From NCBI GenBank assembly GCA_964016885.1, contig OZ024741.1, positions 238,390,001 through 238,454,000 on the forward strand: a stretch of 64,000 nt of DNA. The letters are read 5' to 3'. This stretch comes from Eledone cirrhosa (taxonomy: Eukaryota). The translations under genes were made by a program, and so were the position numbers. Shown piece after piece: positions 2,083 to 61,559 of the stretch. Within the stretch, counting starts at the first letter, position 1. Each line of letters begins with the position of its first letter. The notes under the pieces were generated by a model. That model did no database searches, was not told the origin of the DNA, and saw only the letters and a list, made by a program, of their open reading frames with translations.

Positions 2083-4479
2083 CTGTGGAACTGGTGGAAG
2101 TCGTCTGGGTGTTGTTGAGAATTTCCAGTCATTGGTTAACTGTTCCATCTCTGGATAATATGGACTTTTAGGGTTTATTGACTGAAGATTTCTAGCAAAT
2201 ATATCGTCTGCATTTCTGGTTATTGCAACAGGATTGTTGGTGTGATACAATATTTGTCTCATCTCAGTCGGAGATAGGAATTTTGGATTATCTATTGTTG
2301 TAGGTGAGTTATTGGTGTGATTAATACATCTGAAAACACACAGTGTTATTGACACTACAATAGCCACAGATATTATTACAGCTGCTGCTACAATGATAAT
2401 TACCCAAGTCATATTGAGGTTGTTACCAGTCTGTAAGTGGACAGCATTCAACATTGGAGATGTATCATTACTAACAAACAATGTTAGTATGATAACAGTT
2501 GTTGCTGATTGAACTGGAGTACCACCGTCTTTTACTATAAACTGTAGGTCATATGTTCCTGCATCATTTTGGTAAACTACCCGAGAGAAAGATAAGACAC
2601 CAGTATGGGAGTTGACTGTAAACAGGTTTTTATCATTAGATCTCAGTATTCCATATGTGAGGAAAGCATTGTTTCCAGTGTCTTTGTCAGAGGCTTTCAG
2701 AATTGTGATGTCTTTCTTACTGTGTGGATCATAGTGGACATCTAGATTGTAAGGGTCATTAATAGGAAAGGTTAAATAGGGAGCATTATCATTTTTATCT
2801 AGAATCTCAATAACAATATTGGCAGTGTTATTCAGAGAAGGTGTTCCATTATCTTTGACTAAAATCTGGAATTTATAGATGTCTTTTACTTCCCGATCTA
2901 TTGATTGTGATGTAGAAATAAATCCATATTTTGTAAGTTGGAAAGGAATGTTATCATTGTTGTTATCATTGATGATAGAATATGTAAGTTGACCTCCATC
3001 TTCAAGATCAGGGTCTGTAGCATTGATGAAGCCAATAGGGAAGTCAACTTTCTGGTTTTCATAGGTGAGGAATTGGAATGTATCTTTGGTAAAATGTGGC
3101 TGTACATCATTGACATCAGTTACTTTGACAGAGAATTGTTTCTTAGTCTTTAACTCAGGTGATCCCATGTCATGACATAAAATAGATACAACATAGTGAT
3201 CTATAGTTTCTCTATCAAGAGGTTCTTTCACCAATATTTTATATTCTTTAGAACCCATATTAGAAAGTTGAAACATTTTATGGTGAATATTACATTTAAT
3301 TTGTCCATTAGGACCACTATCAGTATCAATCACTATAACATAAGCTATGAAACCACCAATTTTACTTGCTTCTGAAATAGCTGTAGATGTCTCAGTTAAA
3401 GGTGACACAAAATCTATATTTATATTTGGAGCATTATTTTGATTGCTTATTACATTAATAATTAACATTGCTGTAGAACGTAATGAAGGAATCCCATCAT
3501 CCCTAACTTCAATGTCCAGTTTGTAATTTTGCTGTATATTTTTGTAAAAATTCTCATTTAAAAATAGCTCACCATTTGGTTTGAGTTTAAAGTTTCTTTC
3601 TGCATATGAACTTGTTCTTTGGTAAAAGTTATAAGTAACATTTCCATTTCGACCTGAATCTAAATCTGTAGCTGATATAACAAACACAGGAGAAGATATG
3701 TGATGTGTATCACTAATGGTGATATTGTATGTTTGTTGAGAAAACATAGGCCTGTTATCATTGACATCTATAACAGATATTTCTATGCTTAGAAAACCTT
3801 CTTTTGGAGGTGAACCTCCATCTTTAGCCACTAACTGTAACATATAAGTGTCTTTTAGTTCTCTGTCTAACAATCCTTGTAGAGTAATTTTAAGTATATT
3901 CATTCCATCAGATTCTTTAAATATGGATAGTGAGAATTTTTTACTTTTATCTTTAAGTTTATATGTGATGTTTGAATTGAGAACACCAATGTCTTTATCA
4001 ACAGCATTTGGTATTGATTTTGTTGATCCTTTAGCATCTGTTTCATCAAATTCTAATTTTATTTCTTTTCTATGATAGTTGGGTTGGTGGTCATTAATAT
4101 CATCTATAACTATTTTAATCTTTAATATCTTTAGGAACGTTTCTTCTTTCCTCACAGCTACTTTAACAATCCTGAAACATTCTTTCTTGTAAATACAAAG
4201 TATTTCAGCATCCAGTGTCTGTGTCGTATATAGCTTTCCTGTGTTGGTGACATTGAATAAGTGAGAACCACTTGACACTGTCCTTTGTAGTTGTGTAAAT
4301 GTAATGAGAGTGTGTTGTTTATGTGTGAGAAAGTGTGTTAAGTTAGAATCAACAGCAATGTCTCCGATATAGGTGTGAGGTCTGTCTTCTTCATTGACAT
4401 GGTATGTAATGTCTATCGACACAACAAAATATATCAGTCCATAGAAAAGATAAAACTCTAGGGTGTTGATTATAATCAT
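2083..4479 (-). CDS. PCDH: Protocadherin g1, large exon (signal peptide, 6 EC repeats, TM, proximal tail)
   Basis: 802-aa ORF with DRE, DxNDxxP and AxDGG motifs, EC1 Cys pair LCIYKKEC and TM WVIIIVAAAVIISVAIVV. Acceptor at 4521-4522; donor CAG|gtaccc at 2082. Confidence 0.96.
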
Positions 4480-4934
4480 TGTTGTAATTCATTATTATTC
4501 ACAAATATATATTTCCAAATCTAAAAAAGAAAAAAAAGATATATATATTTGTGAATACACATCTTTAAAACTAAAACAGAAAAGTAAACAAGATTGTGTA
4601 ATTATACCATTGTATATGAAAGATTTATTTATGTGAAATCCATATATTCTAAGTATCTAAAATTTATCCATAGCAAATATAGTTAATATATAAATAGTAT
4701 ACACCTCATATATGCTCTTGGGCCGTTTACATAAAAACGAGTTACTGGTTATTGCATCAGAGACTATATCATATCATCAGCAAAACATTTTTTAAAAAGC
4801 ACTACAAATATGTTTAAGTTATCTCATTATTTCACACCTATGTGGTTTTAGCTAATATGTTATGAGTTTGCATCTCATAGGAGCTTCCTTGTGTGTTTAA
4901 ATAATAGTGGTCCCAGTCATGCTATAAAAAGACC

Positions 4935-6304: not shown

Positions 6305-6986
6305 TCTAAACTATAATAAATTAGGAGTGCGGGACTGTACGGTTTATTTCTTTTAATCCAGTTAGTAAAATAAGTTGGATTACTTTGAATAAATAATTGT
6401 TTCTATTTTAGGCACAAGGCCAGCAATTACCCAGTGCATTACTGGTACTTTATTTTATCGACCCCGTAAGGATGAAAGGCAAAGTCAACCTCGGCGGGAT
6501 TTGAACTCAGATCGTAAAGGGACGTAACTATGCTAGAAAGCATGGCGTCCGACCCTCTACTGATACTGCCAATCCACCGCCCTTACTTTGAATAAATAAT
6601 GAATGAATATTACATAATTTATCTACAAAATTTTGTAGCTGTTGATTAAATATATTTTATTGCTTATTTAAAGATTCACTTCTTTAAAATTTTGAAATGT
6701 AAACATTCCGGTTAGCAATCGCTTAAATAAACATTCATATATTTCCGTCACTAATTTTCTCCTAATGCAGTTTATATATAATATCGTCTTTTTTTAATGT
6801 ATCATGGATTACGTTACTGATTACATAAGAGAGTGTAACACAGTCTTCGTTCAATTTCTGTGTATATTGTCAATTACGATTTTATTTGATGTATCATATC
6901 TACATACATATATACTTGCGTATAATATAAATATGCACACTACACATATTAGCAGAAAACCACCCTTCGGGGGATTTTTCTGCTAG
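6305..6986 (+). mobile_element. Non-autonomous Helitron-like element
   Basis: 5' TC; 3' hairpin gcagaaaaccacccttcgggggatttttctgc then CTAG. Inserted at A|T with no TSD; the RTE frame rejoins exactly when it is removed. Confidence 0.8.
6398..6582 (-). mobile_element. Full-length SINE family A with 18-bp TSD
   Basis: TSD ttactttgaataaataat at 6380-6397 and 6583-6600; tRNA-like head on the minus strand. Confidence 0.92.
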
Positions 6987-11829: not shown

Positions 11830-11840
11830 ATATACATATA

Positions 11841-11892
<52 letters not shown>

Positions 11893-11915
11893 CATATATA
11901 TACATATACATATAC

Positions 11916-11950
<35 letters not shown>

Positions 11951-12023
11951 GATATATACATATATACATATATACATATATATACATATACATATATACA
12001 TATATATACATATATATATACAC

Positions 12024-12076
<53 letters not shown>

Positions 12077-12209
12077 TATATATATATACACACATATATA
12101 TATATATATACACATATATATATATATACACATATATATATATATATACACATATATATATATATATACACATATATATATATATACACATATATATATA
12201 TATATACAC

Positions 12210-12240
<31 letters not shown>

Positions 12241-12683
12241 TATATATATACACATATATATATATACATAAATATACATATACACATATACATATACACA
12301 TATACATATACACATATATATATATATATATACATATATATACATATATATATATATACCTATATATATATATACCTATATATATATATACCTATATATA
12401 TATATATACCTATATATATATATACCTATATATATATATATACCTATATATATATATATATACCTATATATATATATACACCTATATATATATATATATA
12501 TACCTATATATATATATACACCTATATATATATACATATATATATATACATATATATATATACATATATATATATACATATATATATATATACATATATA
12601 TATATACACATATATATATATACATATATATACATATATATACATATATATACATATATATACATATATATACATATATATAC

Positions 12684-12747
<64 letters not shown>

Positions 12748-12841
12748 TTGTTTTTATATATATATACATATACATATATATATATACATATATATATATA
12801 CATATATATATATACATATATATATATACATATATATATAC

Positions 12842-12872
<31 letters not shown>

Positions 12873-12895
12873 CATATATATATATACATATATGC

Positions 12896-12942
<47 letters not shown>

Positions 12943-13013
12943 CATATATATATACATATATATATATACATATATACATATACATATATACATATACATA
13001 TATATATATATAC

Positions 13014-13044
<31 letters not shown>

Positions 13045-13139
13045 CATATATATATACATACATATATATATATATACATATATATATACATACATATATA
13101 TACATATATATATATACATACATATATACATATATATAT
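11830..13139. repeat. ~1.3-kb compound (TA)n/(TACA)/(TACC) microsatellite
   Basis: Seen directly; source of the YI-repeat ORFs. Confidence 0.98.
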
Positions 13140-16730: not shown

Positions 16731-17411
16731 TATATTAAAACTACGTTTGCAGCAATATGCATCTTTATGTATATAATGTTGTATTGATTTAAATACATTG
16801 GAAAACGTGTATTAATGTCTTAATTAAAAATAAAAGCGATGATTAAATGTGAAAATATTTGTATTTTTAAACATGACCATCTTGATATAAATCTGTTAGT
16901 GAAACGAATGAAAGACATACAATAAACAATGAAAATCATAATTAGAAGTATTTCACAGAGAAACTTGATACTAAGTGCAATTGTATTATTACCTTTACAT
17001 TTTGAATTATGTACTAGCAGTCTAAATCTGATGTATATTTCTGTAATTAATATTCTATTTAAATGGAGAGAAATATTAAAGATATTAATAATATTATCAG
17101 TTTAAACTCACTTATGAATATAATATAATAACATTATGAATTATAGCAATATATATGAAATTGTATACTTAAAAATAATCAATTGACAGATCAGTATTTG
17201 CATCATTTAAATATATCTTTCTTCTCAAAGTAACTATACTGCTGTAGTAGTAATTGCTCTTAGTAATGGCTATATCATTGTCTGGCTCTCCATTTTCTAA
17301 ATTGTATATATTCTCATGAAATACACTTTTATTTATGTTTGTCATATCTCAATATGAAATATATATATTACCAAAATATTTAATATAAAATTCCAATGTA
17401 AAGAGACTTAC

Positions 17412-17558
17412 CTGCATGGTTTAATCCTTTGTCTGTGTCTCTTACAGAAGACATTTATTCTGACGTAGTGTTCCAGTGTAACTGCTGCTGTAGTAGTGTG
17501 ACAATGGCAGTATCTTGATGATGTAGATTTGTGAGTCATAGTGGGAGCCAACTACACT
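17412..17558 (-). promoter_or_regulatory. Conserved putative promoter / non-coding first exon of g1
   Basis: Near-identical block once per unit; perfect AG|GTAAGT donor; no upstream polypyrimidine acceptor; contains TGACTCA and a TGACGT half-site. Confidence 0.65.
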
Positions 17559-18382: not shown

Positions 18383-18471
18383 CTATGTTTTATATACTGG
18401 TTCTAAATATGTATCTTGCTCATGTTCACCTTTTGGTGTTGGTGGTATATTTGGTGTGTAGTTACTGTATT
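18383..18471 (-). CDS. PCDH: Protocadherin g2 terminal coding exon (EYSNYTPNIPPTPKGEHEQDTYLEPVYKT*)
   Basis: ttttccag|AA TAC acceptor completes the phase-1 codon; 89 nt to the stop in every copy. Confidence 0.8.
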
Positions 18472-19861: not shown

Positions 19862-20009
19862 CTGATGTTTGATGTGTAATATCTCCTTCACTCCAACCAC
19901 GTTTATGTTCTCTTTGAGATGGTAATGTATCACTTAGGTTGTTTGATGTCACAATACTGCTGTTGTCACCTTGCTCACAAGATGCATCTGAAATCTGCTT
20001 ATTATAGAT
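19862..20009 (-). CDS. PCDH: Protocadherin g2 cytoplasmic exon
   Basis: 148 nt, canonical AG/GT boundaries, open frame. Confidence 0.88.
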
Positions 20010-20226
20010 CTGTCATGAAACAAAGATTTAGATTTAGACACACATTTCTATGAAGTATGTTTTACATCTTACCATCAATGTCACAAGTGAATATATACAA
20101 GAAAATAATATTATGACTATATATGGCATTAAAATAGCTGAACATCAATGACAATCTCTGTATTTAGATGAAATGGGAAAATTGAAACTAAGCTCCAGAT
20201 ATCTGGTGACTACTACTAACTATAAT

Positions 20227-20408
20227 TGTTTCTACTTTTGGCACAAGGCCAGCAATTACCCAGTGCATTACTGGTACTTTATTTTATCGACCCTGTAAGG
20301 ATGAAAGGCAAAGTTAACCTGAGCGGGATTTGCACTCAGAATGGCAAGGGCCGTAACTCTATGCATCAAAGGATGGCGTCAGACACTCTACTGATACTGC
20401 CAATGCAC
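20227..20408 (-). mobile_element. SINE family A in g2 intron 2
   Basis: Matches 6398-6582; possible short TSD ctataat. Confidence 0.85.
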
Positions 20409-20698
20409 CTATAATGTCAAAGTGTCATCTTAGCAAATGTTAGGTAAATCTTATTGCTGCTAACTGTATCAATTTTTAATGGGATTTGGCAAAAGTATTG
20501 GTGATTATAGCTGTGAGGTTTGAAAACTGAATACCATTTAGCTGTTTTCAGAATCTCTGGTATTTGCTACAATAAATGCATTTAAAATGAATTTTGCTAT
20601 TATTATAACAAATTATTTGAAAACAAGAAACAAATAAATATAGTAAAATGTAAAAAAGTAACAATAATATTTAAAAGTGGGATTTATTGCAAAGGTAC

Positions 20699-23101
20699 CT
20701 GTTGTGGAACTGGCGGAAGTCTTCTGGGTGTTGTTGAGAATTTCCATTCATTAGTTAACTGCTCCATCTCTGGATAATATGGACTTTTAGGGTTTATTGA
20801 CTGAAGATTTCTAGCAAATATGTCGTCTGCATTTCTGGTTATTGCAACAGGATTGTTGGTGTGATACAGTATTTGTCTCATCTCAGTCGGAGATAGGAAT
20901 TTTGGATTATCTGTTGTTGTAGGTGAGTTATTGGTGTGATTAATACATCTGAAAACACACAGTGTTATTGACACTACAATAGCCACAGATATTATTACAG
21001 CTGCTGCTACAATGATAATTACCCAAGTCATATTGAGGTTGTTACCAGTCTGTAAGTGGACAGCATTCAACATTGGAGATGTATCATTACTAACAAACAA
21101 TGTTAGTATGATATCAGTTGTTGCTGATTGAACTGGAGTACCACCATCTTTCACTATAAACTGTAGGTCATATGTTCCTGCATCATTTTGGTAAACTGCC
21201 CGAGAGAAAGATAAGACACCAGTATGGGAGTTGACTGTAAACAGGTTTTTATCATTAGATCTCAGTATTCCATATGTGAGGAAAGCATTGTTTCCAGTGT
21301 CTTTGTCAGAGGCTTTCAGAATTGTGATATCTTTCTTACTGTGTGGATCATAGTGTACATCTAGATTGTAAGGGTCATTAATAGGAAAGGTTAAATAGGG
21401 AGCATTATCATTTTTATCTAGAATCTCAATAACAATATTGGCAGTGTTATTCAGAGAAGGTGTTCCATTATCTTTGACTAAAATCTGGAAGTTATAGATG
21501 TCTTTCACTTCCCGATCTATTGATTGTGATGTAGAAATAAATCCATATTTTGTAAGTTGGAAAGGAATGTTATCATTGTTGTTATCATTGATGATAGAAT
21601 ATGTAAGCTGACCTCCATCTTCAAGATCAGGGTCTGTAGCATTGATGAAGCCAATAGGGAAGTCAACTTTCTGGTTTTCATAGGTGAGGAATTGGAATGT
21701 ATCTTTGGTAAAATGTGGCTGTACATCATTAACATCAGTTACTTTGACAGAGAATTGTTTCTTAGTCTTTAACTGAGGTGATCCCATGTCATGACATACA
21801 ATAGATACAACATAGTGGTCTATAGTTTCTCTATCAAGAGGTTCTTTCACCAATATTTTATATTCTTTAGAACCCATGTTAGAAAGTTGAAACATTTTAT
21901 GGTGAATATTACATTTAATTTGTCCATTAGGACCACTATCAGTATCAATGACCATAACATAAGCTATAAAACTCCCAATTTTACTTGCTTCTGAAATAGC
22001 AGTAGAGGTTTCTGTTAAAGGAGACACAAAATCTATATTTATATTTGGAGCATTATTTTGGTTGTTAATTACATTAATAATTAACATTGCCATAGAGCTC
22101 AATGAAGGAATTCCTCCATCCCTGGCTTCAATGTACAGTTGGTATTTACTTTCTCTATTTCGAAAGAAATCTTCAGTGGTGAAAATTTCTCCAGATTTAG
22201 GATTTAATTTGAAATGTTTCTTGGCATGTTTATTTGTATTTCTATGTAAATAGTAAGTAATATTTCCATTTTGGCCAGAATCTTTGTCTGTAGCTGATAA
22301 AACAAACGCAGGTGAAGATATGTGATGTGTATCACTGATGGTGATATTGTATGTTTGTTGAGAAAATTTTGGTTGATTATCATTGACATCTGTAACAGAT
22401 ATTTCTATGTTAAGAATTCCTTGTTTTGGTGGTGAACCTCCATCTTTAGCCACCAACTGTAACATATAAGTGTCCCTTTCTTCTCTGTCTAACACTCCTG
22501 CTAAGGCTATTTTAAGTAGATTTCTTCCATCAAATCCTTTAAACATAGACAGTGAGAATTTCTTACTTTTATCTTTGAGTTTATATGTGATGTTAGAATT
22601 GGAAACACCAATGTCTTTATCAACAGCATTTGGTATTGATTTTGTTGAGCCTTTTCCATCTGTTTCATCAAACTGTAATTGTATTTGTTTTTGTGGAAAC
22701 TCTGGCTGATGGTCATTAATATCTTCTATGAATATTTTAATCTTCAATATCTTCATAAATGTTTCTGATTTTCTTACTGCTACTTTAACAATTCTGGAAC
22801 ATTCCTTGTTATATGTACACAGAGACTCAGCATCCAGTGTCTGTGTAGTGTATAGTTTTCCTGTGTTTGTGACATTGAATAAGTGAGAACCACTTGACAC
22901 TGTTCTTTGTAGTTGTGTAAATGTAATGAGAGTGTGTTGTTGATGTGTAAGAGAGTGTGTTAAGTTAGAATCAACAGCAATGTCTCCTATATAGGTGTGA
23001 GGACTGTCTTCTTCATTGACATGATAAATAAGATCTAAGGACACAACAGAATACATCAGTCCACAGAGAAGGGAAAACTGCAGGGTGTTGCTTATAATCA
23101 T
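20699..23101 (-). CDS. PCDH: Protocadherin g2 large exon
   Basis: 805-aa ORF, 6 EC plus TM; acceptor at 23141-23142; donor CAG|gtacct. Confidence 0.96.
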
Positions 23102-23266
23102 TGTTGCAATTCATTATTCTTCATGAATATATTTCTAAATCTAAAAAGAAAATAGAGCAATTCAGATTACTTTATCAAAATCCCATTATATGATCCTATA
23201 GACACATTTTTATAACCAGCACATCAAATCTTTCATTCTACATCATCAATAATGTCTTGAAATCGT

Positions 23267-25601: not shown

Positions 25602-25748
25602 CTATATTGTTCAATCCTTTGTTTGTGTCTCTTACAGAAGACATTTATTCTGACGTAGTGTTCCGTTGTAACTGCTGCTGTAGTAGTGTGACAATGGCAG
25701 TATCTTGATGATGTAGATTTGTGAGTCATAGTGGGAGTCAACTACACT
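25602..25748 (-). promoter_or_regulatory. Conserved putative promoter / first exon of g2
   Basis: Same block and GTAAGT donor as 17412-17558. Confidence 0.68.
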
Positions 25749-26948: not shown

Positions 26949-27096
26949 CTGATGTCTGATGTGTAATATCTCCTTCACACCAACCACGTTTATGTTCCCT
27001 TTGAGATGGTAATGTATCACTTAAGTTGTTTGATGTCACAATACTGCTGTTGTCACCTTGTTCACAAGACCCATCTGAAATCTGCTTATTATAGAT
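26949..27096 (-). CDS. PCDH: Protocadherin g3 cytoplasmic exon
   Basis: 148 nt, canonical boundaries. Confidence 0.88.
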
Positions 27097-28490: not shown

Positions 28491-30890
28491 CTGTGGAACT
28501 GGTGGAAGTCTTCTGGGTGTTGTTGAGAATTTCCATTCATTGGTTAACTGTTCCATCTCTGGATAATATGGACTTTTAGGGTTTATTGACTGAAGATTTC
28601 TAGCAAATATATCGTCTGCATTTCTGGTTATTGCAACAGGATTGTTGGTGTGATACAGTATTTGTCTCATCTCAGTCGGAGATAGGAATTTTGGATTATC
28701 TATTGTTGTAGGTGAGTTATTGGTGTGATTAATACATCTGAAAACACACAGTGTTATTGACACTACAATAGCCACAGATATTATTACAGCTGCTGCTACA
28801 ATGATAATTACCCAAGTCATATTGAGGTTGTTACCAGTCTGTAAGTGGACTGCAGTCAACATTGGAGATGTATCATTACTAACAAACAGTGTTAGTATGA
28901 TAGCTGTTGTTGCTGATTGAACTGGAGTACCACCATCTTTCACTATAAACTGTAGGTCATATGTTCCTGCATCATTTTGGTAAACTGCCCGAGAGAAAGA
29001 TAAGACACCAGTATGGGAGTTGACTGTAAACAGGTTTTTATCATTAGATCTCAGTATTCCATATGTGAGGAAAGCATTGTTTCCAGTGTCTTTGTCAGAG
29101 GCTTTCAGAATTGTGATGTCTTTCTTACTGTGTGGATCATAGTGGACATCTAGATTGTAAGGGTCATTAATAGGAAAGGTAAAATAGGGAGCATTATCAT
29201 TTTTATCTAGAATCTCAATAACAATATTGGCAGTATTATTCAGAGAAGGTGTTCCATTATCTTTGACTAAAATCTGGAATTTATAGATGTCTTTCATTTC
29301 CCGATCTATTGATTGTGATGTAGAAATAAATCCATTTTTTGTAAGTTGGAAAGGAATGTTATCATTGTTGTTATCATTGATGATAGAATATGTAAGCTGA
29401 CCCCCATCATCAAGATCAGGGTCTGTAGCATTGATGAAGCCAATAGGGAAGTCAACTTTCTGGTTTTCATAGGTGAGGAATTGGAATGTATCTTTGGTAA
29501 AATGTGGCTGTACATCATTGACATCAGTTACTTTGACAGAGAATTGTTTCTTAGTCTTTAATGGAGGTGATCCCATGTCATGACATATAATAGATACAAC
29601 ATAGTGATCTATAGTTTCTCTATCAAAAGGTTCTTTCACCAATATTTTATATTCCTTGGAACCCATATTAGAAAGTTGAAACATTTTATGTTGAATATTA
29701 CATTTAATTTGTCCATTAGGACCACTATCAGTGTCAATGACCATAACATAAGCTATAAAACTCCCTATTACACTTGCTTCTGAAATAGCAGTAGAGGTTT
29801 CTGTTAAAGGAGACACAAAATCTATATTTATAGATGGAGCATTATTTTGATTGCTAATTACATTAATACTTAACATTGCCATAGAACTTAATGAAGGAAT
29901 TCCACCATCTTTGGCTTCAATGTACAGTTGGTATTTACTTTCTTTATTTCTAAAGAAATCTGCATTAGTGAAAATTTCTCCAGATTTGGAATTTAATTTG
30001 AAATGTCTTCTTGCATATTTATTTGTATTTCTATGTAAATAGTAGGTGATATTTCCATTTTGACCAGAATCTAAATCTATAGCTGATAAAACAAACACAG
30101 GAGAAGATATATGATGTGTATCACTAATGGTTATATTATATAGTTTTTTAGTAAATATAGGTCTGTTATCATTGACATCAATAACAAATATTTCTATGTT
30201 TAGAAAACCTACTTTTTGTGGTGACCCTCCATCTTTAGCCACTAACTCTAACATATAAGTGTCTTTCAATTCCCTGTCTAACACTCCTTGTAGAGTAATT
30301 TTAAGTATATTTATTCCATCAGTTTCTTTAAATATGGACAGTGAGAATTTCTTACTTTTATCATTAAGTTTATATGTGATGTTAGAATTGAGAACACTAA
30401 TGTCTTTATCAACAGCATTTGGTATTGATTTTGTTGATCCCTTTCCATCTGTTTCATCAAACTGTAATTGTATTTGTTTTTGTGGAAACTCTGGCTGATG
30501 GTCATTAATATCTTCTATGAATATTTTAATCTTCAATATCTTCATAAATGTTTCTGATTTCCTCACTGCTACTTTAACAATTCTGGAACATTCCTTGTTA
30601 TATGTACACAGAGACTCAGCATCCAGTGTCTGTGTAGTGTATAGTTTTCCTGTGTTTGTGACATTGAATAAGTTAGAACCACTTGACACTGTCCTTTGTA
30701 ATTGTGTAAATGTAATGAGAGTGTGTTGTTGATGTGTAAGAGAGTGTGTTAAGTTAGAATCAACAGCAATGTCTCCTATATAGGTGTGAGGACTGTCTTC
30801 TTCATTAACATGATAAATAAGATCTAAGGACACAACAGAATATATTAATCCAAAGAGAATATAAATCGGTAGAGTGCTGATTATAACCAT
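28491..30890 (-). CDS. PCDH: Protocadherin g3 large exon
   Basis: The 828-aa ORF includes read-through into the intron. True donor CAG|gtacct at 28490; acceptor at 30930-30931. Confidence 0.96.
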
Positions 30891-31361
30891 TGTTGTAATT
30901 CATTATTTATTATTGTATATTCCATATATCTAGAAAAAATAAGGAAACACATTGATAAATAGAAATGTTGTTGTGAAATACATACATTTAAAAAAACTAA
31001 ACTAAACAATAATATTTTAAATCTGAATTTAGTTATTAGAAAGATTGAATTTTGTTTTTACTCTTTAGCCAGGAAGTGAAAGGCCATTCTGCTGACACAT
31101 TCAGGACCTCTTTCATTTGCAGGAGGGAAGCCAAAATTTCTACTCATTTTAGTGACCTGGCTTGAATGCTTGCAATAGAGTTGACTAAATGCATTCAAAG
31201 AGCAGGCTCGTTGAGGGAATATTGGTGAAAGATTAACACAACCAACCAAGTTGTCTACAGCTGCATTAGAGTTCAGGACACAATTAAAGATTTCTATTAA
31301 CAGTTGTATAAATGACATTACAAATGCATAAATAACCTTATAAATTTCAGAAAACTCAGGT

Positions 31362-35209: not shown

Positions 35210-35356
35210 CTATAATGTTTAATCCTTTGTTTGTGTCTCTTACAGAAGACATTTATTCTGACGTAGTGTTCCAGTGTAACTGCTGCTGTAGTAGTGTGAC
35301 AATGGCAGTATCTTGATGATGTAGATTTGTGAGTCATAGTGGGAGCCAACTACACT
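35210..35356 (-). promoter_or_regulatory. Conserved putative promoter / first exon of g3
   Basis: Same block, GTAAGT donor. Confidence 0.68.
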
Positions 35357-37528: not shown

Positions 37529-39922
37529 CTGTGGAACAGGTGGAAGTCTTCTGGGTGTTGTTGAGAATTTCCATTCATTAGTTAACTGCTCCATCTCTGG
37601 ATAATATGGACTTTTAGGGTTTATTGACTGAAGATTTCTAGCAAATATATCGTCTGCATTTCTGGTTATTGCAACAGGATTGTTAGTGTGATACAGTATT
37701 TGTCTCATCTCAGTCGGAGATAGGAATTTTGGATTATCTATTGTTGTAGGTGAGTTATTGGTGTGATTTATACATCTGAAAACACACAGTGTTATTGACA
37801 CTACAATAGCCACAGATATTATTACAGCTGCTGCTACAATGATAATTACCCAAGTCATATTGAGATTGTTACCAGTCTGTAAGTGGACAGCATTCAACAT
37901 TGGAGATGTATCATTACTAACAAACAGTGTTAGTATGATAGCAGTTGTTGCTGATTGAACTGGAGTGCCACCATCTTTCACTATAAACTGTAGGTCATAT
38001 GTTCCTGCATCATTTTGGTAAACTGTCCGAGAGAAAGATAAGACACCAGTATGAGAGTTGACTGTAAACAGGTTTTTATCATTAGATCTCAGTATTCCAT
38101 ATGTGAGGAAAGCATTGTTTCCAGTGTCTTTGTCAGAGGCTTTCAGAATTGTGATGTCTTTCTTACTGTGTGGTTGGTAGTGGACATCTAGATTGTAAGG
38201 GTCATTAATAGGAAAGGTAAAATAGGGAGCATTATCATTTTTATCTAGAATCTCAATAACAATATTGGCAGTGTTATTCAGAGAAGGTGTTCCATTATCT
38301 TTGACTAAAATTTGGAAATTATAGATGTCTTTTACTTCCCGATCTATTGACTGTGATGTAGAAATAAATCCATATTTTGTAAGTTGGAAAGGAATGTTAT
38401 CATTGTTGTTATCATTGATGATAGAATATGTAAGTTGACCTCCATCTTCAAGATCAGGGTCTGTAGCATTGATGAAGCCAATAGGGAAGTCAACCTTCTG
38501 GTTTTCATAGGTGAGGAATTGGAATGTATCTTTGGTAAAATGTGGTTGTACATCATTAACATCAGTTACTTTGACAGAGAATTGTTTCTTAGTCTTTAAC
38601 TGAGGTGATCCCATGTCATGACATACAATAGATACAACATAGTGATCTATAGTTTCCCTATCAAGAGGTTCTTTCACCAATATTTTATATTCTTTAGAAC
38701 CCATATTAGAAAGTTGAAACATTTTATGTTGAATATTACATTTAATTTGTCCATTAGGTCCACTATCAGTGTCAATAACCATAACATAAGCTATAAAACT
38801 CCCAATTTTACTTGCTTCTGAAATAGCTGTAGAAGTCTCTGTTAAAGGAGACACAAAATCTATATTTATAGTTGGAGCATTATTTTGGTTGCTAATTACA
38901 TTAATAATTAACATTACCATAGAACTTAATGAAGGAATTCCCCCATCTTTGGCTTCAATGTACAGTTGATATTTACTTTCTTTATTTCTAAAGAAATCTT
39001 CATTGGTGAAAATTTCTCCAGATTTGGAATTTAATTTGAAATTTTTTCTGGCATATTTATTTGTATTTCTGTGTAAATAGTAAGTAATATTTCCATTTTG
39101 ACCAGAATCTAAATCTGTAGCTGATAAAACAAATACAGGAGAAGATATATGATGTGTATCACTAATGGTTATATTATATAGTCTTTTAGTAAATATAGGT
39201 CTGTTATCATTTACATCAATAACAGATATTTCTATGTTTAGAAAGCCTTCTTTTTGTGGTGAACCTCCATCTTTAGCCACTAACTCTAACATGTAAGTGT
39301 CTTTTAATTCCCTGTCTAACACTCCTTGTAGAGTAATTTTAAGTATATTTATTCCATCAGTTTCTTTAAATATGGATAGTGAGAATTTCTTACTTTTATC
39401 ATTAATTTTATATGTGATGTTAGAATTGAGACCACTAATGTCTTTATCAACAGCATTTGGTATTGATTTTGTGGAGCCTTTTGCTTCAGTTTCATAAAAT
39501 ATTATTTCCAGTTGATTTTTTGGAAACTCTGGCTGATGGTCATTAATATCTTCTATGAATATTTTAATCTTTAATATCTTCATAAATGTTTCTGATTTTC
39601 TTACTGCTACTTTAACAATTCTGGAACATTTCTTGTTATATGTACACAGAGACTCAGCATCCAGTGTCTGTGTAGTGTATAGTTTTCCTGTGTTAGTGAC
39701 ATTGAATAAGTTAGAACCACTTGACACCGTCCTTTGTAGTTGTGTAAATGTAATGAGAGTGTGTTGTTGATGTGTAAGAGAGTGTGTTAAGTTAGAATCA
39801 ACAGCAATGTCTCCTATATAGGTGTGAGGACTGTCTTCTTCATTGACATGGTAAGTAATGTCTATGGACACAACAGAATATATTAATCCAAAGAGAATCG
39901 GTAGAGTGCTGATTATAACCAT
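37529..39922 (-). CDS. PCDH: Protocadherin g4 large exon
   Basis: 802-aa ORF; acceptor at 39962-39963; donor CAG|gtaact. Confidence 0.96.
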
Positions 39923-41284
39923 TGTTGTAATTCATTATTTATTGTTGTATAATCCATATATCTAGAAAAAATAAGGAAACACATTGATAAATAGAAATGT
40001 TGTTGTGAAATACATACATTTAAAAAAACTAAACTAAAAAATAATATTTTAAATCTGGATTTAGTTATTAGAAAGATTGAACTTTGTTTTTACTGTTTAG
40101 GCAGGAAGTGAAAGGCCATGCTGCTGACACATTCATGACCTCTTTGATTTGCAAGAGGGACGCCAAAATTTCTACTCATTTTGGTGACCTGGCTTGAATG
40201 CTTGCAATAGAATTGACTAAATGCATTCAAAGAGCAGGCTGGTTGAGGGAATATTGGTGAAAGATTAACACAACCAACGAAATTGTCTACAGTTGTATTA
40301 AAAATTGGAACACAACTAAAGATTTCTATTAATAGTTGTATAAATGACATTACAAATGCATAAATAACCTTATAAATTTAAGAAAACTCGGGTATATATG
40401 TATAAATGCGTAAATAACATTATAGTTATAGTCTACAAACGTTGTTGAGTGTTTTAGCATCTTTAATGTTCTAAACAAACTTTAGAATGTCCTTACATAA
40501 TTAAAAATTTAAAACATCTCACCTATTTTGAGAATGTCTATCGATGTAACTGTTCCCCATTTCTAAACATACAAAATAAGTGGAAGTATATTTCTTGTTG
40601 GACGATATATTCCTGTAAAAATTATTCAGAAGTAACCACTAGCTCTACAGAATTGCATTTTTGCAATCTTCCATCTTGAGACAATAGAGTTATCTGCCCC
40701 TCTCAATGTTAAATATTTGATACTACAATTTCTTTGTGGGTGGTCAATATATTGAGAAGCTTCTATGTAAGGTGGAATGACACATTTGTCCAATTCTGTG
40801 TTTTATTGAAGTATTTAATTTATCTTCTAACTAATGCACCTCCACAATATGCTATCATTACATGAAATTACTAATTTTATAATAATATGGTGGGCACCGA
40901 AAAGTTTCAGGTGAGAATTAGCTTTGTAAAACTCTATAGAAATGAATTCTGATCTAAAATGATAAATTATCTAACCGATAAATATATATCTACGATCATG
41001 GTGCAAAGTTGTTGAATAGCATTGATCAGCATTTGTCATGAAAACATATAAAACAGAGATAATCATGCCCAAATATGTGAAACATCAGTCTGTTCTGGTA
41101 TAATGTTATAATATATATACATTATAATATCTCTTTGAGGAACAAAGTGAAATTCAGAACATGTTTCTTCTAGATTGTTATCTAGTCTGACCTTTTCTGC
41201 TTGAACCCTGTAATATTGTGTTCATAATGATAATGGAGGAAAGTCAGTTACTGGAAAATAGATTTCTTTATAATTTACAATTGA

Positions 41285-44063: not shown

Positions 44064-44210
44064 CTATATTGTTTAATCCTTTGTTTGTGTCTCTTACAGA
44101 AGACATTTATTCTGACGTAGTGTTCCAGTGTAACTGCTGCTGTAGTAGTGTGACAATGGCAGTATCTTGATGATGTAGTTTTGTGAGTCATAGTGGGAGC
44201 CAACTACACT
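44064..44210 (-). promoter_or_regulatory. Conserved putative promoter / first exon of g4
   Basis: Same block, GTAAGT donor. Confidence 0.68.
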
Positions 44211-46379: not shown

Positions 46380-48773
46380 CTGTGGAACAGGTGGAAGTCT
46401 TCTGGGTGTTGTTGAGAATTTCCATTCATTAGTTAACTGCTCCATCTCTGGATAATATGGACCTTTAGGGTTTATTGACTGAAGATTTCTAGCAAATATA
46501 TCATCTGCATTTCTGGTTATTGCAACAGGATTGTTGGTGTGATACAGTATTTGTCTCATCTCAGTCGGAGATAGGAATTTTGGATTATCTATTGTTGTAG
46601 GTGAGTTATTGGTGTGATTTATACATCTGAAAACACACAGTGTTATTGACACTACAATAGCCACAGATATTATTACAGCTGCTGCTACAATGATAATTAC
46701 CCAAGTCATATTGAGGTTGTTACCAGTCTGTAAGTGGACTGCAGTCAACATTGGAGATGTATCATTACTAACAAACAGTGTTAGTATGATAGCAGTTGTG
46801 ACTGATTGAACTGGAGTACCACCATCTTTCACTATAAACTGTAGGTCATATGTTCCTGCATCATTTTGGTAAACTGCCCGAGAGAAAGATAAGACACCAG
46901 TATGGGAGTTGACTGTAAACAGGTTTTTATCATTAGATCTCAGTATTCCATATGTGAGGAAAGCATTGTTTCCAGTGTCTTTGTCAGAGGCTTTCAAAAT
47001 TGTGATGTCTTTCTTACTGTGTGGATGGTAGTGGGCATCTAGATTGTAAGGGTCATTAATAGGAAAGGTAAAATAGGGATCATTATCATTTTTATCTAGA
47101 ATCTCAATAACAATATTGGCAGTATTATTCAGAGAAGGTGTTCCATTATCTTTGACTAAAATCTGGAAGTTATAGATGTCTTTCACTTCCCGATCTATTG
47201 ATTGTGATGTAGAAATAAATCCATATTTTGTAAGTTGGAAAGGAATGTTATCATTGTTGTTATCATTGATGATAGAATATGTAAGTTGACCTCCATCTCC
47301 AAGATCAGGGTCTGTAGCATTGATGAAGCCAATAGGGAAGTCAACTTTCTGGTTTTCATAGGTGAGGAATTGGAATGTATCTTTGGTAAAATGTGGCTGT
47401 ACATCATTGACATCAGTTACTTTGACAGAGAATTGTTTCTTAGTCTTTAATGGAGGTGATCCCATGTCATGACATACAATAGATACAACATAGTGGTCTA
47501 TAGTTTCTCTATCAAGAGGTTCTTTCACCAATATTTTATATTCTTTAGAACCCATATTAGAAAGTTGAAACATTTTATGGTGAATATTACACTTAATTTG
47601 TCCATTAGGTCCACTATCAGTATCAATAACCATAACATAAGCTATAAAACTCCCTATTACACTTGCTTCTGAAATAGCTGTAGAGGTTTCTGTTAAAGGA
47701 GACACAAAATCTATATTTATAGCTGGAGCATTATTTTGATTGCTAATTACATTAATATTTAACATTGCCATAGAACTTAATGAAGGAATTCCACCATCTT
47801 TGGCTTCAATGTACAGTTGGTATTTACTTTCTTTATTTCTAAAGAAATCTGCATTGGTGAAAATTTCTCCAGATTTGGAATTTAACTTGAAATTTTTTCT
47901 GGCATATTTATTTGTATTTCTGTGTAAATAGTAGGTGATATTTCCATTTTGACCAGAATCTAAATCTGTAGCTGATAAAACAAACACAGGAGAAGATATA
48001 TGATGTGTATCACTGATGGTTATATTATATAGTTTTTTAGTAAATATAGGTCTGTTATCATTTACATCAATAACAAATATTTCTATGTTTAGAAAACCTA
48101 CTTTTTGTGGTGAACCTCCATCTTTAGCCACTAACTGTAATATATAAGTGTCTTTTAATTCCCTGTCTAACACTCCTTGTAGAGTAATTTTAAGTATATT
48201 CATTCCATCAGTTTCTTTAAATATGGACAGTGAGAATTTTTTACTTTTATCTTTTAGTGTATATGTGATGTTAGAATTGATAACACCATTGTCTTTATCA
48301 ACAGCATTTGGTATTGATTTTGTCAATCCCTTTACTTCAGTTTCATCAAACTCTATTTTTATTTGCTTTTGTGGAAACTCTGGCTGATGGTCATTAATAT
48401 CTTCTATGAATATTTTAATCTTCAATATCTTCATAAATGTTTCTGATTTTCTTACTGCTACTTTAACACTTCTGGAACATTCCTTGTTAGATGTACACAG
48501 TGACTCTGCATCCAGTGTCTGTGTAGTGTATAGTTTTCCCGTGTTAGTGACATTGAATAAGTTAGAACCACTTGACACTGTCCTTTGTAGTTGTGTAAAT
48601 GTAATGAGAGTGTGTTGTTGATATGTAAGAGAGTGTGTTAAGTTAGAATCAACAGCAATATCTCCTATATAGGTGTGAGGACTGTCTTCTTCATTGACAT
48701 GGTAAATAAGATCTAAGGACACAACAGAATATATTAATCCAAAGAGAATCGGTAGAGTGCTGATTATAACCAT
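46380..48773 (-). CDS. PCDH: Protocadherin g5 large exon
   Basis: 802-aa ORF; acceptor at 48813-48814; donor CAG|gtaact. Confidence 0.96.
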
Positions 48774-50137
48774 TGTTGTAATTCATTATTTATTGTTGTA
48801 TAATCCATATATCTAGAAAAAATAAGGAAACACATTGATAAATAGAAATGTTGTTGTGAAATACATACATTTAAAAAAACTAAACTAAACAAAAATATTT
48901 TAAATCTGGATTTAGTTATTAGAAAGATTGAACTTTGTTTTTACTGTTTAGCCAGGAAGTGAAAGGCCATGCTGCTGGCACATTCAGGACCTCTTTGATC
49001 TGCAGGAGGGACGCCAAAATTTCTACTCATTTTGGTGACCTGGCTTGAATGCTTGCAATAGAGTTGACTAAATGCATTCAAAGAGCAGGCTGGTTGAGGG
49101 AATATTGGTAAAAGATTAACACAACCAACCAAGTTGTGTACAGCTGTATTAAAAATCAGAACAGAACTAAAGATTTCTATTAACAGTTGTATAAATGACA
49201 TTACAAATGCATAAATAACCTTATAAATTTAAGAAAACTCGGGTATATATGTATAAATGCGTAAATAACATTATAGTTATAGTCTACAAATGTTTTAGCA
49301 TCTTTAATGTTCTAAACAAACTTTAGAATGTCCATACATAATTAAAAAGTTAAAACAACATAGATTGAACATCTCACCTATTTTGAGAATATCTATCGAT
49401 GTAACTGTTCCCCATTTCTAAACATACAAAATAAGTGGAAGTATATTTCTTGTTGGACGATATATTCCTGTAAAAATTATTCAGAAGTAACCATTAGCTC
49501 TACAGAATTGCATTTTTGCTATCTTCCATCTTGAGACAATAGAGTTATCTGCCCCTCCCAATGTTAAATATTTGATACTACAATTTCTTTGTGGGTGGTC
49601 AATATATTGAGAAGCTTCTATGTAAGGTGGAATGACACATTTGTCCAATTCTGTATTTTATTGAAGTATTTAATTTATCTTCTAACTAATGCACCTCCAC
49701 AATATGCTATCATTACATGAAATTACTAATTTTATAATAATATGGTGGGCACCGAAAAGTTTCAGGTGAAAATTAGCTTTGTAAAACTCTATAGAAATAA
49801 ATTCTGGTTTAAAATTATAAATTATCTAACCGATAAATATATATCTACGATCATGGTGCTAAGTTGTTGAATAGAGTTGATCAGCGTTGGTCATAAAAAC
49901 ATAAAACAGAGATAATCATGCCCAAATATGTGAAACATCAGTCTGTTCTGGTATAATGTTATATTATATATACATTATAATATCTCTTTGAGGAACAAAG
50001 TGAAATTCAGAACATGTTTCTTCTAGATTGTTATCTAGTTTGACCTTTTCTGCTTGAACCCTGTAATATTGTGTTCATAATGATAGTGGAGGAAAGTCAG
50101 TTACTGGAAAATAGATTTCTTTATAATTTACAATTGA

Positions 50138-52903: not shown

Positions 52904-53050
52904 CTATAATGTTTAATCCTTTGTTTGTGTCTCTTACAGAAGACATTTATTCTGACGTAGTGTTCCAGTGTAACTGCTGCTGTAGTAGTGTGACAATGGC
53001 AGTATCTTGATGATGTAGATTTGTGAGTCATAGTGGGAGCCAACTACACT
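52904..53050 (-). promoter_or_regulatory. Conserved putative promoter / first exon of g5
   Basis: Same block, GTAAGT donor. Confidence 0.68.
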
Positions 53051-55228: not shown

Positions 55229-57630
55229 CTGTGGAACAGGTGGAAGTCTTCTGGGTGTTGTTGAAAATTTCCATTCATTAGTTAACTGCTCCATCTCTGG
55301 ATAATATGGACTTTTAGGGTTTATTGACTGAAGATTTCTAGCAAATATATCGTCTGCATTTCTGGTTATTGCAACAGGATTGTTAGTGTGATACAGTATT
55401 TGTCTCATCTCAGTCGGAGATAGGAATTTTGGATTATCTATTGTTGTAGGTGAGTTATTGGTGTGATTAATACATCTGAAAACACACAGTGTTATTGACA
55501 CTACAATAGCCACAGATATTATTACAGCTGCTGCTACAATGATAATTACCCAAGTCATATTGAGGTTGTTACCAGTCTGTAAGTGGACAGAAGTCAACAT
55601 TGGAGATGTATCATTACTAACAAACAGTGTTAGTATGATAGCAGTTGTTACTGATTGAACTGGAGTACCACCATCTTTCACTATAAACTGTAGGTCATAT
55701 GTTCCTGCATCATTTTGGTAAACTGTCCGAGAGAAAGATAAGACACCAGTGTGGGAGTTGACTGTAAACAGGTTTTTATCATTAGATCTCAGTATTCCAT
55801 ATGTGAGAAAAGCATTGTTTCCAGTGTCTTTGTCAGAGGCTTTCAGAATTGTGATGTCTTTCTTACTGTGTGGATCATAGTGGACATCTAGATTGTAAGG
55901 GTCATTAATAGGAAAGGTAAAATAGGGTGCATTATCATTTTTATCTAGAATCTCAATAACAATATTGGCAGTGTTATTCAGAGAAGGTGTTCCATTATCT
56001 TTGACTAAAACCTGGAATTTATAGATGTCTTTCACTTCCCGATCTATTGATTGTGATGTAGAAATAAATCCATTTTTTGTAAGTTGGAAAGGAATGTTAT
56101 CATTGTTGTTATCATTGATGATAGAATATGTAAGCTGACCCCCATTATCAAGATCAGGGTCTGTAGCATTGATGAAGCCAATAGGGAAGTCAACTTTCTG
56201 GTTTTCATAGGTGAGGAATTGGAATGTATCTTTGGTAAAATATGGCTGTACATCATTGACATCAGTTACTTTGACAGAGAATTGTTTCTTAGTCTTTAAC
56301 TGAGGTGATCCCATGTCATGACATACAATAGATACAACATAGTGATCTATAGTTTCCCTATCAAGAGGTTCTTTCACCAATATTTTATATAATCCTTGGA
56401 ACCCATATTAGAAAGTTGAAACATCTTATGTTGAATATTACACTTAATTTGTCCATTAGGTCCACTATCTGTGTCAATGACCATAACATAAGCTATAAAA
56501 CTTCCAAATTTACTTGCTTCCGAAATAGCAGTAGAGGTCTCAGTTAAAGGAGTTAAAAAATCTATATTTATAGTTGGGGCATTATTTTGAATGCTAACTA
56601 CATTAATAATTAACACTGCTTTAGAACTTAATGAAGGAATTCCCCCATCTCTAGCTTCAACATACAATTGGTATTTGCTTTCTTTATTTCTAAAGAAATC
56701 TTCATTAGTGAAAATTTCTCCAGATTTGGAATTTAATTTGAAATATTTTCTGGCATATTTATTTGTATTTCTGTGTAAATAGTAGGTGATATTTCCATTT
56801 TGACCAGAATCTAAATCTGTAGCTGATAAAACAAACACAGGAGAAGATATATGATGTGTATCACTGATAGTTGTATTATATATTTTTTCAGTTAATATTG
56901 GTCTGTTATCATTTACATCAATAACAGATATTTCTATGTTTAGAAAACCTACTTTTTGTGGTGAACCTCCATCTTTAGCCACTAACTGTAACATATAAGT
57001 GTCTTTTAATTCCCTGTCTAACACTCCTTGTAGAGTAATTTTAAGTATATTCATTCCATCAGTTTCTTTAAATATGGTCAGTGAGAATTTCTTACTTTTA
57101 TCATTAAGTTTATATGTGATGTTAGAATTGAGAACACTAATGTCTTTATCAACAGCATTTGGTATTGATTTTGTTGAGCCTTTTCCATCTGTTTCATCAA
57201 ACTGTAATTGTATTTGTTTTTGTGGAAACTCTGGCTGATGGTCATTAATATCTTCTATGAATATTTTAATCTTTAATATCTTTATAGATGTTTCTGATAT
57301 TCTCACTGCAACTTTAATAATTCTGGAACATCCTTTGTTATATGTACACAGAGACTCAGCATCCAGTGTCTGTGTAGTGTATAGTTTTCCTGTGTTGGTG
57401 ACATTGAATAAGTGAGAACCACTTGACACTGTCCTTTGTAGTTGTGTAAATGTAATGAGACTGTGTTGTTGATGTGTAAGGGAGTGTGTTAAGTTGGAAT
57501 CAACAGTAATGTCTCCTATATAGGTGCGAGGACTGTCTTCTTCATTGACATGATAAATAAGATCTAAGGACACAACAGAATACATGAATCCGAAGAGAAG
57601 ATAAATCGGTAGAGTGCTGATTATAACCAT
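55229..57630 (-). pseudogene. PCDH: Protocadherin g6 large exon with a +2 frameshift in EC4
   Basis: Split into ORFs 56374-57630 and 55214-56380. tattttatatAAtccttgg versus tattttatattccttgg in g3; the extra bases are near 56391-56392. Confidence 0.82.
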
Positions 57631-59574
57631 TGTTGTAATTCATTATTTATTGTATTTCATAAACCAATATATCTAGAAAAAAATAATGAAACATGTTAAC
57701 TTAATTATACAATAATATATACAAATTTTTCTGAGTCGAATATATAACATGTCATATTTACAATACTATATATTGAATAATACTTTAAAACTGGATTTAG
57801 TTAATAAAAAGATTGAACTTCATTTTTGCTGTTTAGCTAGGAAGTGAAAGACTATACCCATGACCCATACTGGGCCTCTGATTTGCAGGAAGGCATTCAA
57901 AAGTTATGCTCAGTTTCGTGACCTGATTTGAATGCTTGCAGTAGAGAGGACTAAATGCACTCAAAGAGCAGGTTCGTTGAGTTAAACTTGGTGAAAAATT
58001 GACACAGCTAACCAAATAATCACAACTGTTTTAAACTCAGAATATAACTAAAGACTTAGCATCTTTTTTGAGTGATTTAGGATCTTAAATGATTTTATTG
58101 AGCATTTCACCTATTTTGAGTATATCTATCGACCTATGTGTCTCCCATTTCTAGATAAACATAATACTGACAAGTATATTTCCTGTGGGACGATATATTC
58201 CTGTAAAAATTATTCAGAAGTAACCACTAGCTCTACAGAATTGCATTTTTGCAATCTTCCATCTTGAGACGATAGAGTTATCTGCCCCTCCCAATGTTAA
58301 ATATTTGCTACTACAATTTCTTTGTGAGTGGTACATATATAGAAAAGCTTATATGTAAGATGGAAAAAGACATTTGTTCTATTCTGTATTTTATTGTAGT
58401 ATTTACTTTGGCTTCTAACTAATGCACCTCCACAATATGCTATCATTACGTGAAATTGTTAATTTTATTATAATAGAGTGGGCATCGAACATTTTCTGTT
58501 GAAAATTAGCATTGTAAAACTCTATAGAAATGAATTCTGATTTAAAATTATAAATTATATAATCAATAAATATATGTCTACGATCATGATGCTAAGTTCT
58601 TGAGCAGAGCTGATCAGTGTTGGTTACCAAAAGATATAAAACAAAGATAATCATGCCCAAATATGTGAAACATCAGTCTGTTCTGGTAAAATGTTATATT
58701 ATATACATTATAGTATCTCTTTGAGGAACAAAGTGAAATTCAGAACACGTTTCTTCTAGATTGTTATCTAGTCTGACGTTTTCTGCTTGAACCCTGTAAT
58801 ATTGTGTTCATAATGATAGTGGAGGAAAGTCAGTTACTGGAAAATAGATTTCTTTATAATTTACAATTGATATCGAAACAGAGATTGAATGTAACATGTC
58901 TGTTAATTATTGTGCTTATTTTCTTTTATATGTGCAGGTTTTTGTTATTTTGTAATGGGTAGGAGTGTTACTATTTCTGGGTTAACATAATAATATTGTT
59001 CTTGCTTGATATTTATTTTTCTGGTTGTTTGTATGTTTTAACATATAAACATGTGGTGTGTGTTTGTTGTATCGGATTGTTGATGAAACATATTCCCCAT
59101 ATGTTTCAGTGAACTTTTTAGTTTAAATGTTTCTGTACGTTATCTTTCTTAATAACATTTGGTAATATGAAGTGTGTTATTTGTAACATTTATTGTTACA
59201 ATAAATGTTTTTAGGCAGGACTGACATAGTTATTGATGGATGTTTATAATTGATTGGGAACTGTGTGTTTATTTAAATAAAATGTTGACTGAATATTGGT
59301 CAGTTTTGTGTATATTGTGTATTTATTGATCATTACAATTAGGTTTTCATGTTCACTATATCTACCTAAGCTTAGTGGAATTTCACAAATAAAAAAATAA
59401 AAATTCTTAAGCTTTACAATATATAGTTTTGTGTTTACAAATCAAATTTGTCCGGGCCCAACTAAGTAGCAGTAATGCAACAGTACTAACTGATTATTTA
59501 ATATCTCTTGTGATTCATAATTATTATAAAAAAGTGATCAATATATATACTCTTCTTCTTTTCTGCTCTTGCTC

Positions 59575-61412: not shown

Positions 61413-61559
61413 CTATATTGTTTAATCCTTTGTTTGTGTCTCTTACAGAAGACATTTATTCTGACGTAGTGTTCCAGTGTAACTGCTGCTGTAGTAGTGT
61501 GACAATGGCAGTATCTTGATGATGTAGATTTGTGAGTCATAGTGGGAGCCAACTACACT
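61413..61559 (-). promoter_or_regulatory. Conserved putative promoter / first exon of g6
   Basis: Same block, GTAAGT donor. Confidence 0.68.

Follow-up and report, generated by a model that had tools for sequence, protein, structure and literature searches.

How do cephalopods regulate the 150-300 protocadherins that they have expanded independently? This is the question addressed here, and cephalopod protocadherin clusters are termed still enigmatic in the cited part of a review (PMC10658181). The window, by which we mean the whole 64,000-nt stretch of Eledone cirrhosa DNA that was analysed (contig OZ024741.1, positions 238,390,001 to 238,454,000), is a tandem array of protocadherin genes with six large minus-strand ORFs encoding cadherin domains. 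Entries named "protocadherin beta-15-like" share 85% (Octopus vulgaris) and 79% (Argonauta hians) identity with the g2 protein. Downstream of each large exon, which closes with a donor, come two small coding exons, the stop codon lying in the second; annotated O. vulgaris and Argonauta proteins carry the same tail. The coding parts are as follows:

2083..4520, minus strand: large exon of g1 (cadherin repeats, TM, juxtamembrane tail); ATG at 4479, AG 41 nt before the ATG
20699..23140, minus strand: large exon of g2; ATG at 23101, AG 39 nt before the ATG
28491..30929, minus strand: large exon of g3; ATG at 30890, AG 39 nt before the ATG
37529..39961, minus strand: large exon of g4; ATG at 39922, AG 39 nt before the ATG
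46380..48812, minus strand: large exon of g5; ATG at 48773, AG 39 nt before the ATG
55229..57672, minus strand: large exon of g6, frameshifted near 56390; ATG at 57630, AG 42 nt before the ATG
19862..20009, minus strand: small coding exon of g2 (exon 3, cytoplasmic), its peptide being the same in annotated O. vulgaris and Argonauta proteins
near 720-867, 26949-27096, 36840-36987, 45691-45838, 54540-54687 and 63028-63175, minus strand: equivalents of this small coding exon in the other units
18383..18471, minus strand: last coding exon of g2 (exon 4) including the stop, about 830 nt before the next block
starts at 26668, 36270, 45128, 53970 and 62443, minus strand: equivalents of this last coding exon in the other units

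The order along the units is strict, namely block, large exon, exon 3 and exon 4, the block being the upstream module described below. Mid/high genes and E genes each own an exon 3 and a stop-bearing exon 4. A shared constant exon was thus rejected, every gene being complete with its own last two exons, and the window genes are whole-gene duplicates without shared constant exons. The cited part of an earlier study describes coleoid protocadherins in general as whole-gene duplicates without common constant exons (PMC9068888).

Several other observations concern the surroundings. The large ORF of g6 is split by a frameshift (56374-56407), pointing to either a pseudogene or an assembly error. The first intron of g1 (12.9 kb) holds a 1.3-kb degenerate (AT)n array (11830-13139), and SINE-like repeats are found at 1-146, 5791-5890, 6388-6578 and 20222-20409. 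At C2:238370000-238378000, the gene at 238377295 combines a mid-type N-terminus with exons 3-4 of the neighbouring type (60-73% identity) and is likely to be recombinant. The Cadherin_2 family has at least 121 matched places (best 150 of 255 candidates scored) on contigs C2, C4, C6, C7 and C17; among the matches listed, more protocadherin arrays appear at C2:239.4-239.7, 252.3-252.5 and 331-339 Mb and on C7.

The feature at issue is a 147-bp block present once per unit:

17412..17558, minus strand: leader module of g1, likely a non-coding first exon; 17412 is the last base before GTAAGT
25602..25748, minus strand: leader module of g2
35210..35356, minus strand: leader module of g3
44064..44210, minus strand: leader module of g4
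52904..53050, minus strand: leader module of g5
61413..61559, minus strand: leader module of g6

The preliminary description, which had reported six near-invariant copies, each ending in AG/GTAAGT and each paired with an acceptor shortly before the next ATG, proved accurate on all of these points: the copies are 95.8-99.3% identical to the one at 17412 over 140-143 nt, the donor is intact on the minus strand in 6/6, and an acceptor AG precedes the large-exon ATG by 41, 39, 39, 39, 39 and 42 nt, the six proposed junction coordinates matching. The window holds no seventh full copy. The reported contrast with more diverged surroundings also holds for g1-g3, where the block is 96% identical and the 150 nt on either side 72% and 71%. 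Genes g3-g6 are recent duplicates with a likewise 99% identical upstream flank, and therefore add nothing to this contrast. Fourfold-degenerate sites of the g1-g3 large exons are 80% identical N-terminally and 94.5% identical in the C-terminal half, so that the block is no more alike than the latter. Over seven diverged units the block reaches 95%, the flanks 70-72%, and fourfold sites 81.5% (N-terminal half) and 94% (C-terminal half). The conserved island is thus real; identity within a single subfamily cannot tell selection from gene conversion.

A wider view came from the whole 3.0-Gb genome, covered beyond the fetched DNA by one BLAST-type search and three exact patterns. In the suggested test of whether hits lie only upstream of protocadherins, 40/40 scored hits (of 57 candidates) fell at C2:238.1-240.2 Mb on the minus strand. 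Exact matches to the 17-mer core lay in the cluster and on the genes' strand in 57 of 58 cases; 42/42 matches to a 20-mer and 38/38 to a third pattern also fell inside the cluster, and reversed control patterns gave 0 matches genome-wide. The single exception, on contig C25, has no block around it and is a chance match, not a homologue. Since the scored and exact matches, all but this one, are inside the cluster, a dispersed repeat was rejected.

The fetched DNA (1.66 Mb) comprises 87 large-exon starts, 78 of them outside an array that we call F. With array F excluded, a homologue lies between the gene and the previous gene in 75/78, bearing out the claim of one module per gene: 72 of these 75 genes have one upstream block and 3 have two. 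A profile search of the same 1.66 Mb gave 128 minus-strand hits against 1 on the plus strand, and the homologues span subfamilies that are only about 55% identical in protein. The three genes without a block are one frameshifted at an array top, one intact, and one with 1.7 kb examined; the intact gene has no detectable block in 9 kb, which counts against the first-exon reading developed below. In array F (49% protein identity), 0/9 blocks were found at E<=0.05 with the main profile. With a second profile, weak hits (E 3e-4 to 0.9) appeared at the matching position in its 8 intergenic stretches, with a GTAAGT donor. The array F leader (C2:252.40-252.48 Mb, L183-L190) is CAG/CAA-rich and highly diverged; between it and the coding exon stands another conserved segment, with GTAAGT at its end, that may be a second 5'UTR exon. 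The 10-kb stretches upstream of more distant protocadherins, those at C2:237.79, 240.40, 331.7 and 333.9 Mb, yielded no homologue. Like the result for array F, this counts against the first-exon reading, but long introns could place a leader beyond these stretches.

What is conserved inside the block differs from what had first been noticed. The relevant segments of the g1 copy are:

17472..17488, minus strand: 17-bp family core GCAGCAGTTACACTGGA, ending 60 nt before the donor
17501..17506, minus strand: SOX-like CATTGT, at the start of the CATTGTCACAC segment common to subfamilies C and E
17427..17432, minus strand: SOX-like ACAAAG, 21 nt before the donor
17532..17538, minus strand: TGACTCA, kept in the mid, high and E subfamilies and absent in low and C
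17230..17270, minus strand: a second, degenerate copy of the core segment (GCCATT...ACTACAGCAG...GTTAC), 140-180 nt past the donor and within the intron

The motif list given earlier consisted of TGACTCA (the AP-1 consensus), TGACGT (read on the plus strand) and GCCAT. All three are present in the window block. Counts over 51 homologues are 16 for the CRE half-site, 25 for GCCAT and 20 for TGACTCA. The CRE half-site and GCCAT were rejected as family features, being found in 2/16 and 4/16 representatives, within shuffle range. The list had missed the conserved core, which is present with <=2 mismatches in 49/51 homologues and ends 59-64 nt from the donor in 46 of these 49. The donor GT itself is kept in 51/51, in 47 at the exact profile-predicted base, and in an alignment of 18 representatives the invariant columns lie mostly in core and donor. 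SOX-like sites (ACAAWG/CWTTGT, with an A/T toggle at one position) occur in 13/16 representatives against 3.9 in shuffles, a contrast that is overstated, the motif having been picked after inspection among homologous representatives. ACAAAG or ACAATG, the former a variant of the SOX site, stands at -21 to -25 from the donor in 10/16. CATTGT is given as a Sox consensus in the cited part of another paper (PMC11564870). The CRE half-site and GCCAT are specific to subfamilies, with the core and the SOX-like sites as the conserved part. The low subfamily has no TGACTCA and carries 2-6 tandem core copies. There, the core is expanded in ~27-30 nt units inside the leader (C2:238020266-238296700), with C2 238037170-238037789 and the array-end spare block as the most extreme cases.

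Does this conservation reflect selection? Between the mid and C subfamilies, the 46-nt core region is 74% identical, against 55-58% at fourfold sites, 54-55% in the flanks and 52-59% in protein. That the core region exceeds both fourfold sites and flanks points to selection. C-terminal-half fourfold sites (e.g., 20699-22050) are 92-95% identical even between mid and low, while N-terminal halves are 66% and flanks 42-51% identical in the same comparison. Such a pattern speaks for strong regional gene conversion of C-terminal halves, with diversity retained in the N-terminal cadherin repeats.

The block is not under constraint as protein. The synonymous share of changes is 0.20-0.23 in all three frames, close to the neutral 0.23-0.25, compared with 25/52 in the exon 3 control, and no protein extension corresponding to the block was seen at the N-terminus of 120 retrieved homologues. 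The absence of codon constraint in any frame led us to reject both a coding exon and a conserved upstream peptide. A structured RNA was likewise rejected, with 0 Rfam matches to the block at E<=1 and fold z of +1.6 and +0.7. Spliced-leader exons are far shorter than the block, and a spliced-leader RNA was dismissed on this ground.

To which gene, then, does the block belong? The earlier assignment to the 5' side of the gene is borne out by solo genes and by plus-strand genes. Solo genes have the block 2.1, 8.0 and 9.3 kb upstream; in the 8.0-kb case there is no other gene within 68 kb, and in the 9.3-kb case the 5' neighbour is 74 kb away. On contig C7, plus-strand genes have plus-strand homologues 9.7 and 18 kb upstream (E ~1e-5, a rough value), and 2/4 of the 10-kb stretches upstream of C7 protocadherins hold a plus-strand homologue ending in a donor. 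At the tops of arrays A, C and E, the elements without a block found upstream are broken or 5'-truncated. Against the first-exon reading, the donor inside arrays lies closer to the previous gene's last exon (0.6-1.9 kb) than to the gene that follows (mostly 2-13 kb, with an overall range of 1.8 to >80 kb), and spare blocks with intact donors end three arrays at their 3' ends (C2 238020271, 238348428 and 239947075). One spare block has no protocadherin in the next 120 kb, and for two the next gene has another candidate block some 2 kb before it; the spare blocks may serve the next gene, or a non-coding RNA, as alternative leaders. Duplication breakpoints in the long first intron would account for both the spare blocks and the closeness to the previous gene.

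Position, strand, one-per-gene order, donor, lack of codon constraint and a core common to distant subfamilies are demonstrated for the module, which looks more like a transcribed leader exon than the upstream promoter element originally proposed. We consider that the block is probably each gene's own non-coding first exon carrying core-promoter sites. Transcription would begin within the block or immediately ahead of it, perhaps at the A in the initiator-like CAGT of the core, ~72 nt from the donor. Such a placement is guesswork, because the strict initiator TCAKTY is no commoner than in shuffles; within CAGT the A is invariant, the next letter is G, C, T or A and the following one nearly always T. 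AP-1, SOX and Ohler1-like segments would then sit just upstream of the start, and the donor would be joined to the acceptor 30-45 nt before the ATG. Drosophila core-promoter elements include Inr TCAKTY and Ohler motif 1 YGGTCACACTR, according to the cited part of one study (PMC3743134). Ohler1-like matches (<=2 mismatches) occur in 8/16 representatives against 6/128 shuffles, and TATA is not enriched among the representatives. An ordinary non-coding first exon resembles the block in being non-coding, in its donor, in the acceptor shortly before the ATG and in Ohler1-like matches; it differs in that exact searches recover the core at protocadherin loci alone, so that the core is no general promoter motif.

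Some observations count against the first-exon reading: the leader would hold 4-9 upstream ATGs if the whole block were transcribed, and no start site was seen in the contig data. No block-to-large-exon junction was found among 15 of 417 joints listed (contigs only). Run X1, which comes from another organism and is guessed to be RNA, has two contigs over the block at 35261; they show the letter usual in the high subfamily, from which it follows that the module exists in a second species. This run gives no cover in the intron bins beside the donors, which proves nothing. Runs X2 and X4 (one sample) gave intronic contigs with 0-3 differences, marking them as genomic DNA of the same or a very close species and not as independent evidence.

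The initial proposal went further and saw in the block an analogue of the vertebrate Pcdh CSE: equivalent promoters would compete for a shared distal enhancer through a non-CTCF factor, giving stochastic choice per neuron. This would add to the first-exon reading, with which it is mutually compatible, and we regard it as a rather doubtful extension. The vertebrate CSE is a CTCF site with a CGCT box, according to the cited part of a study (PMC7811963). Like the block, it is a short cluster-specific element found once per tandem protocadherin unit in one orientation, and the likeness ends with this arrangement, the block departing from the CSE in the three defining features tested; it is therefore no CSE. 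It has no CGCT box or CTCF-like match: as the preliminary description had said of CTCF, nothing evident was found, the best matches over 51 regions having 3-5 mismatches to a 14-letter CTCF consensus, as in shuffles, with CGCT in just 4/51 homologue regions. Nor is it at a constant distance from the ATG, lying 1.8 to >80 kb away across an intron. Finally, it ends in a splice donor, and its genes have no shared constant exons. Because each gene brings its own terminal exons, there is nothing here to impose promoter competition of the kind expected at vertebrate variable exons.

Speaking for the CSE analogy are a cluster-specific, same-orientation module repeated once per gene over 2.2 Mb, a 17-20 bp core long enough for a multi-finger protein, the expansion of C2H2 genes on the same chromosome in cephalopods (PMC9068888, in part), and the expectation of cohesin-type regulation in cephalopod clusters, voiced without data in the cited part of a review (PMC10658181). 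Against it stand, besides the missing CTCF-type matches and the complete gene units (own exons here; PMC9068888, in part), the homologues that precede solo genes on another contig and the single-cell papers, whose cited parts describe Pcdh expression as ubiquitous or cell-type-enriched (10.1101/2022.01.24.477459; PMC12240821). A bolder version, which we think unlikely, is that octopods convergently evolved a protocadherin-specific promoter tag, its core read by a dedicated non-CTCF factor (e.g., an expanded C2H2 protein) together with SOX, so that about a hundred whole-gene copies would be equivalent competitors for shared enhancers and yield a random protocadherin code per neuron. The leader donors might also be interchangeable, one promoter splicing into a downstream gene.

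Other recurring elements offer partial parallels, each described here from the cited part of its source. The NRSE/RE1 of fish and mammalian protocadherin clusters is likewise a recurring ~20-bp upstream element (PMC2926608), and both contain CAGCA...GG. In fish it occurs in 38-46% of genes (PMC2926608), whereas the octopod module is near-universal. It was rejected as an identity for the core: the best match to TYAGMRCC + 2 or 5-11 nt + GGMSAG has 3-5 mismatches of 14, as in shuffles. Chelicerate sDscam genes are, like the octopod array, tandem invertebrate neural recognition genes with their own promoter before each repeat; however, their 5' cassettes are coding and splice to shared exons (PMC5775551), while the octopod repeated piece is non-coding and its genes whole. 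Identical in family and organisation are the cephalopod PCDH sub-arrays, head-to-tail whole-gene duplicates with gene conversion, for which the cited part describes no shared upstream module, the word "promoter" being absent from the main text (PMC9068888).

That the block is an internal 5'UTR exon or an RNA-level element (exon definition, upstream-ORF control), with the promoter elsewhere, seems quite improbable to us. It would suit the fixed distance of the core to the donor and not to any upstream landmark, the C/A-rich, unstructured module strand, the upstream ORF of 40-62 codons that opens in 15/17 testable mid/high units, and the 2-6 tandem core copies tolerated in the low subfamily. Yet the previous stop codon is just ~830 nt from the block, the upstream ORF shows no codon constraint, and a second, partial copy is found beyond the exon, within the intron. 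Moreover, no acceptor stands at a conserved position: scores before the block are <=6.1 bits in 49/51, a weak test given that the matrix, built from the small exons of the cluster (training range 8.3-19), also scores the presumed large-exon acceptors low (-2 to 13).

Very unlikely, in our opinion, is ownership by the upstream gene, with the block as its 3' end or as a read-through element whose donor splices read-through transcripts into the next gene. The short, steady distance from the last exon, the spare blocks at three array ends and the read-through fusions among octopus PCDH models (10.1101/2022.01.24.477459, in part) fit this idea, as does an AATAAA inside the block in the last 200 nt of 18/19 mid/high copies; but AATAAA is absent from low, B and C copies, solo genes carry the block upstream and not downstream, and the plus-strand C7 homologues sit upstream as well. 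Passive similarity, whether from recent duplications plus gene conversion or from a hitchhiking remnant of a repeat, is largely refuted and hardly credible: it draws on C-terminal fourfold sites as uniform within a subfamily as the block (0.94 vs 0.96) and on the near-identical g3-g6 flanks, whereas the block is a sharp island against 0.7 flanks, reaches only 0.85 between mid and high where the converted half reaches 0.94 and so was not swept by the same tracts, keeps its core where synonymous sites are saturated, and has no dispersed copies.

Overall, a duplicated first exon under selection explains what was found, and promoter competition is conjecture. On the first-exon reading, every whole-gene duplication would have brought along a copy of the module, which purifying selection would then have maintained, perhaps with some help from conversion within subfamilies; SOX-type sites, plus AP-1 in some subfamilies, would provide a common neural on-signal. 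The gene used in each neuron would be set by something besides the shared module, which thus would explain common neural activation and not choice. No description of such a module was found in the literature on the topic, of which most subscription papers and supplements lay outside our scope, and this cis-module of octopod protocadherins, itself real and cluster-specific, appears to be undescribed. The exon may already be drawn as 5'UTR in public gene models, and if it is just a duplicated first exon, the result is a useful annotation and no new mechanism. Any choice mechanism would work without a vertebrate-type CTCF site at the module. A family-wide module with a definable core offers a defined site at which start-site mapping, reporter assays, DNA pull-down and tests of chromatin contacts can be aimed, and hence a concrete target for asking how cephalopod neurons switch their protocadherins on.
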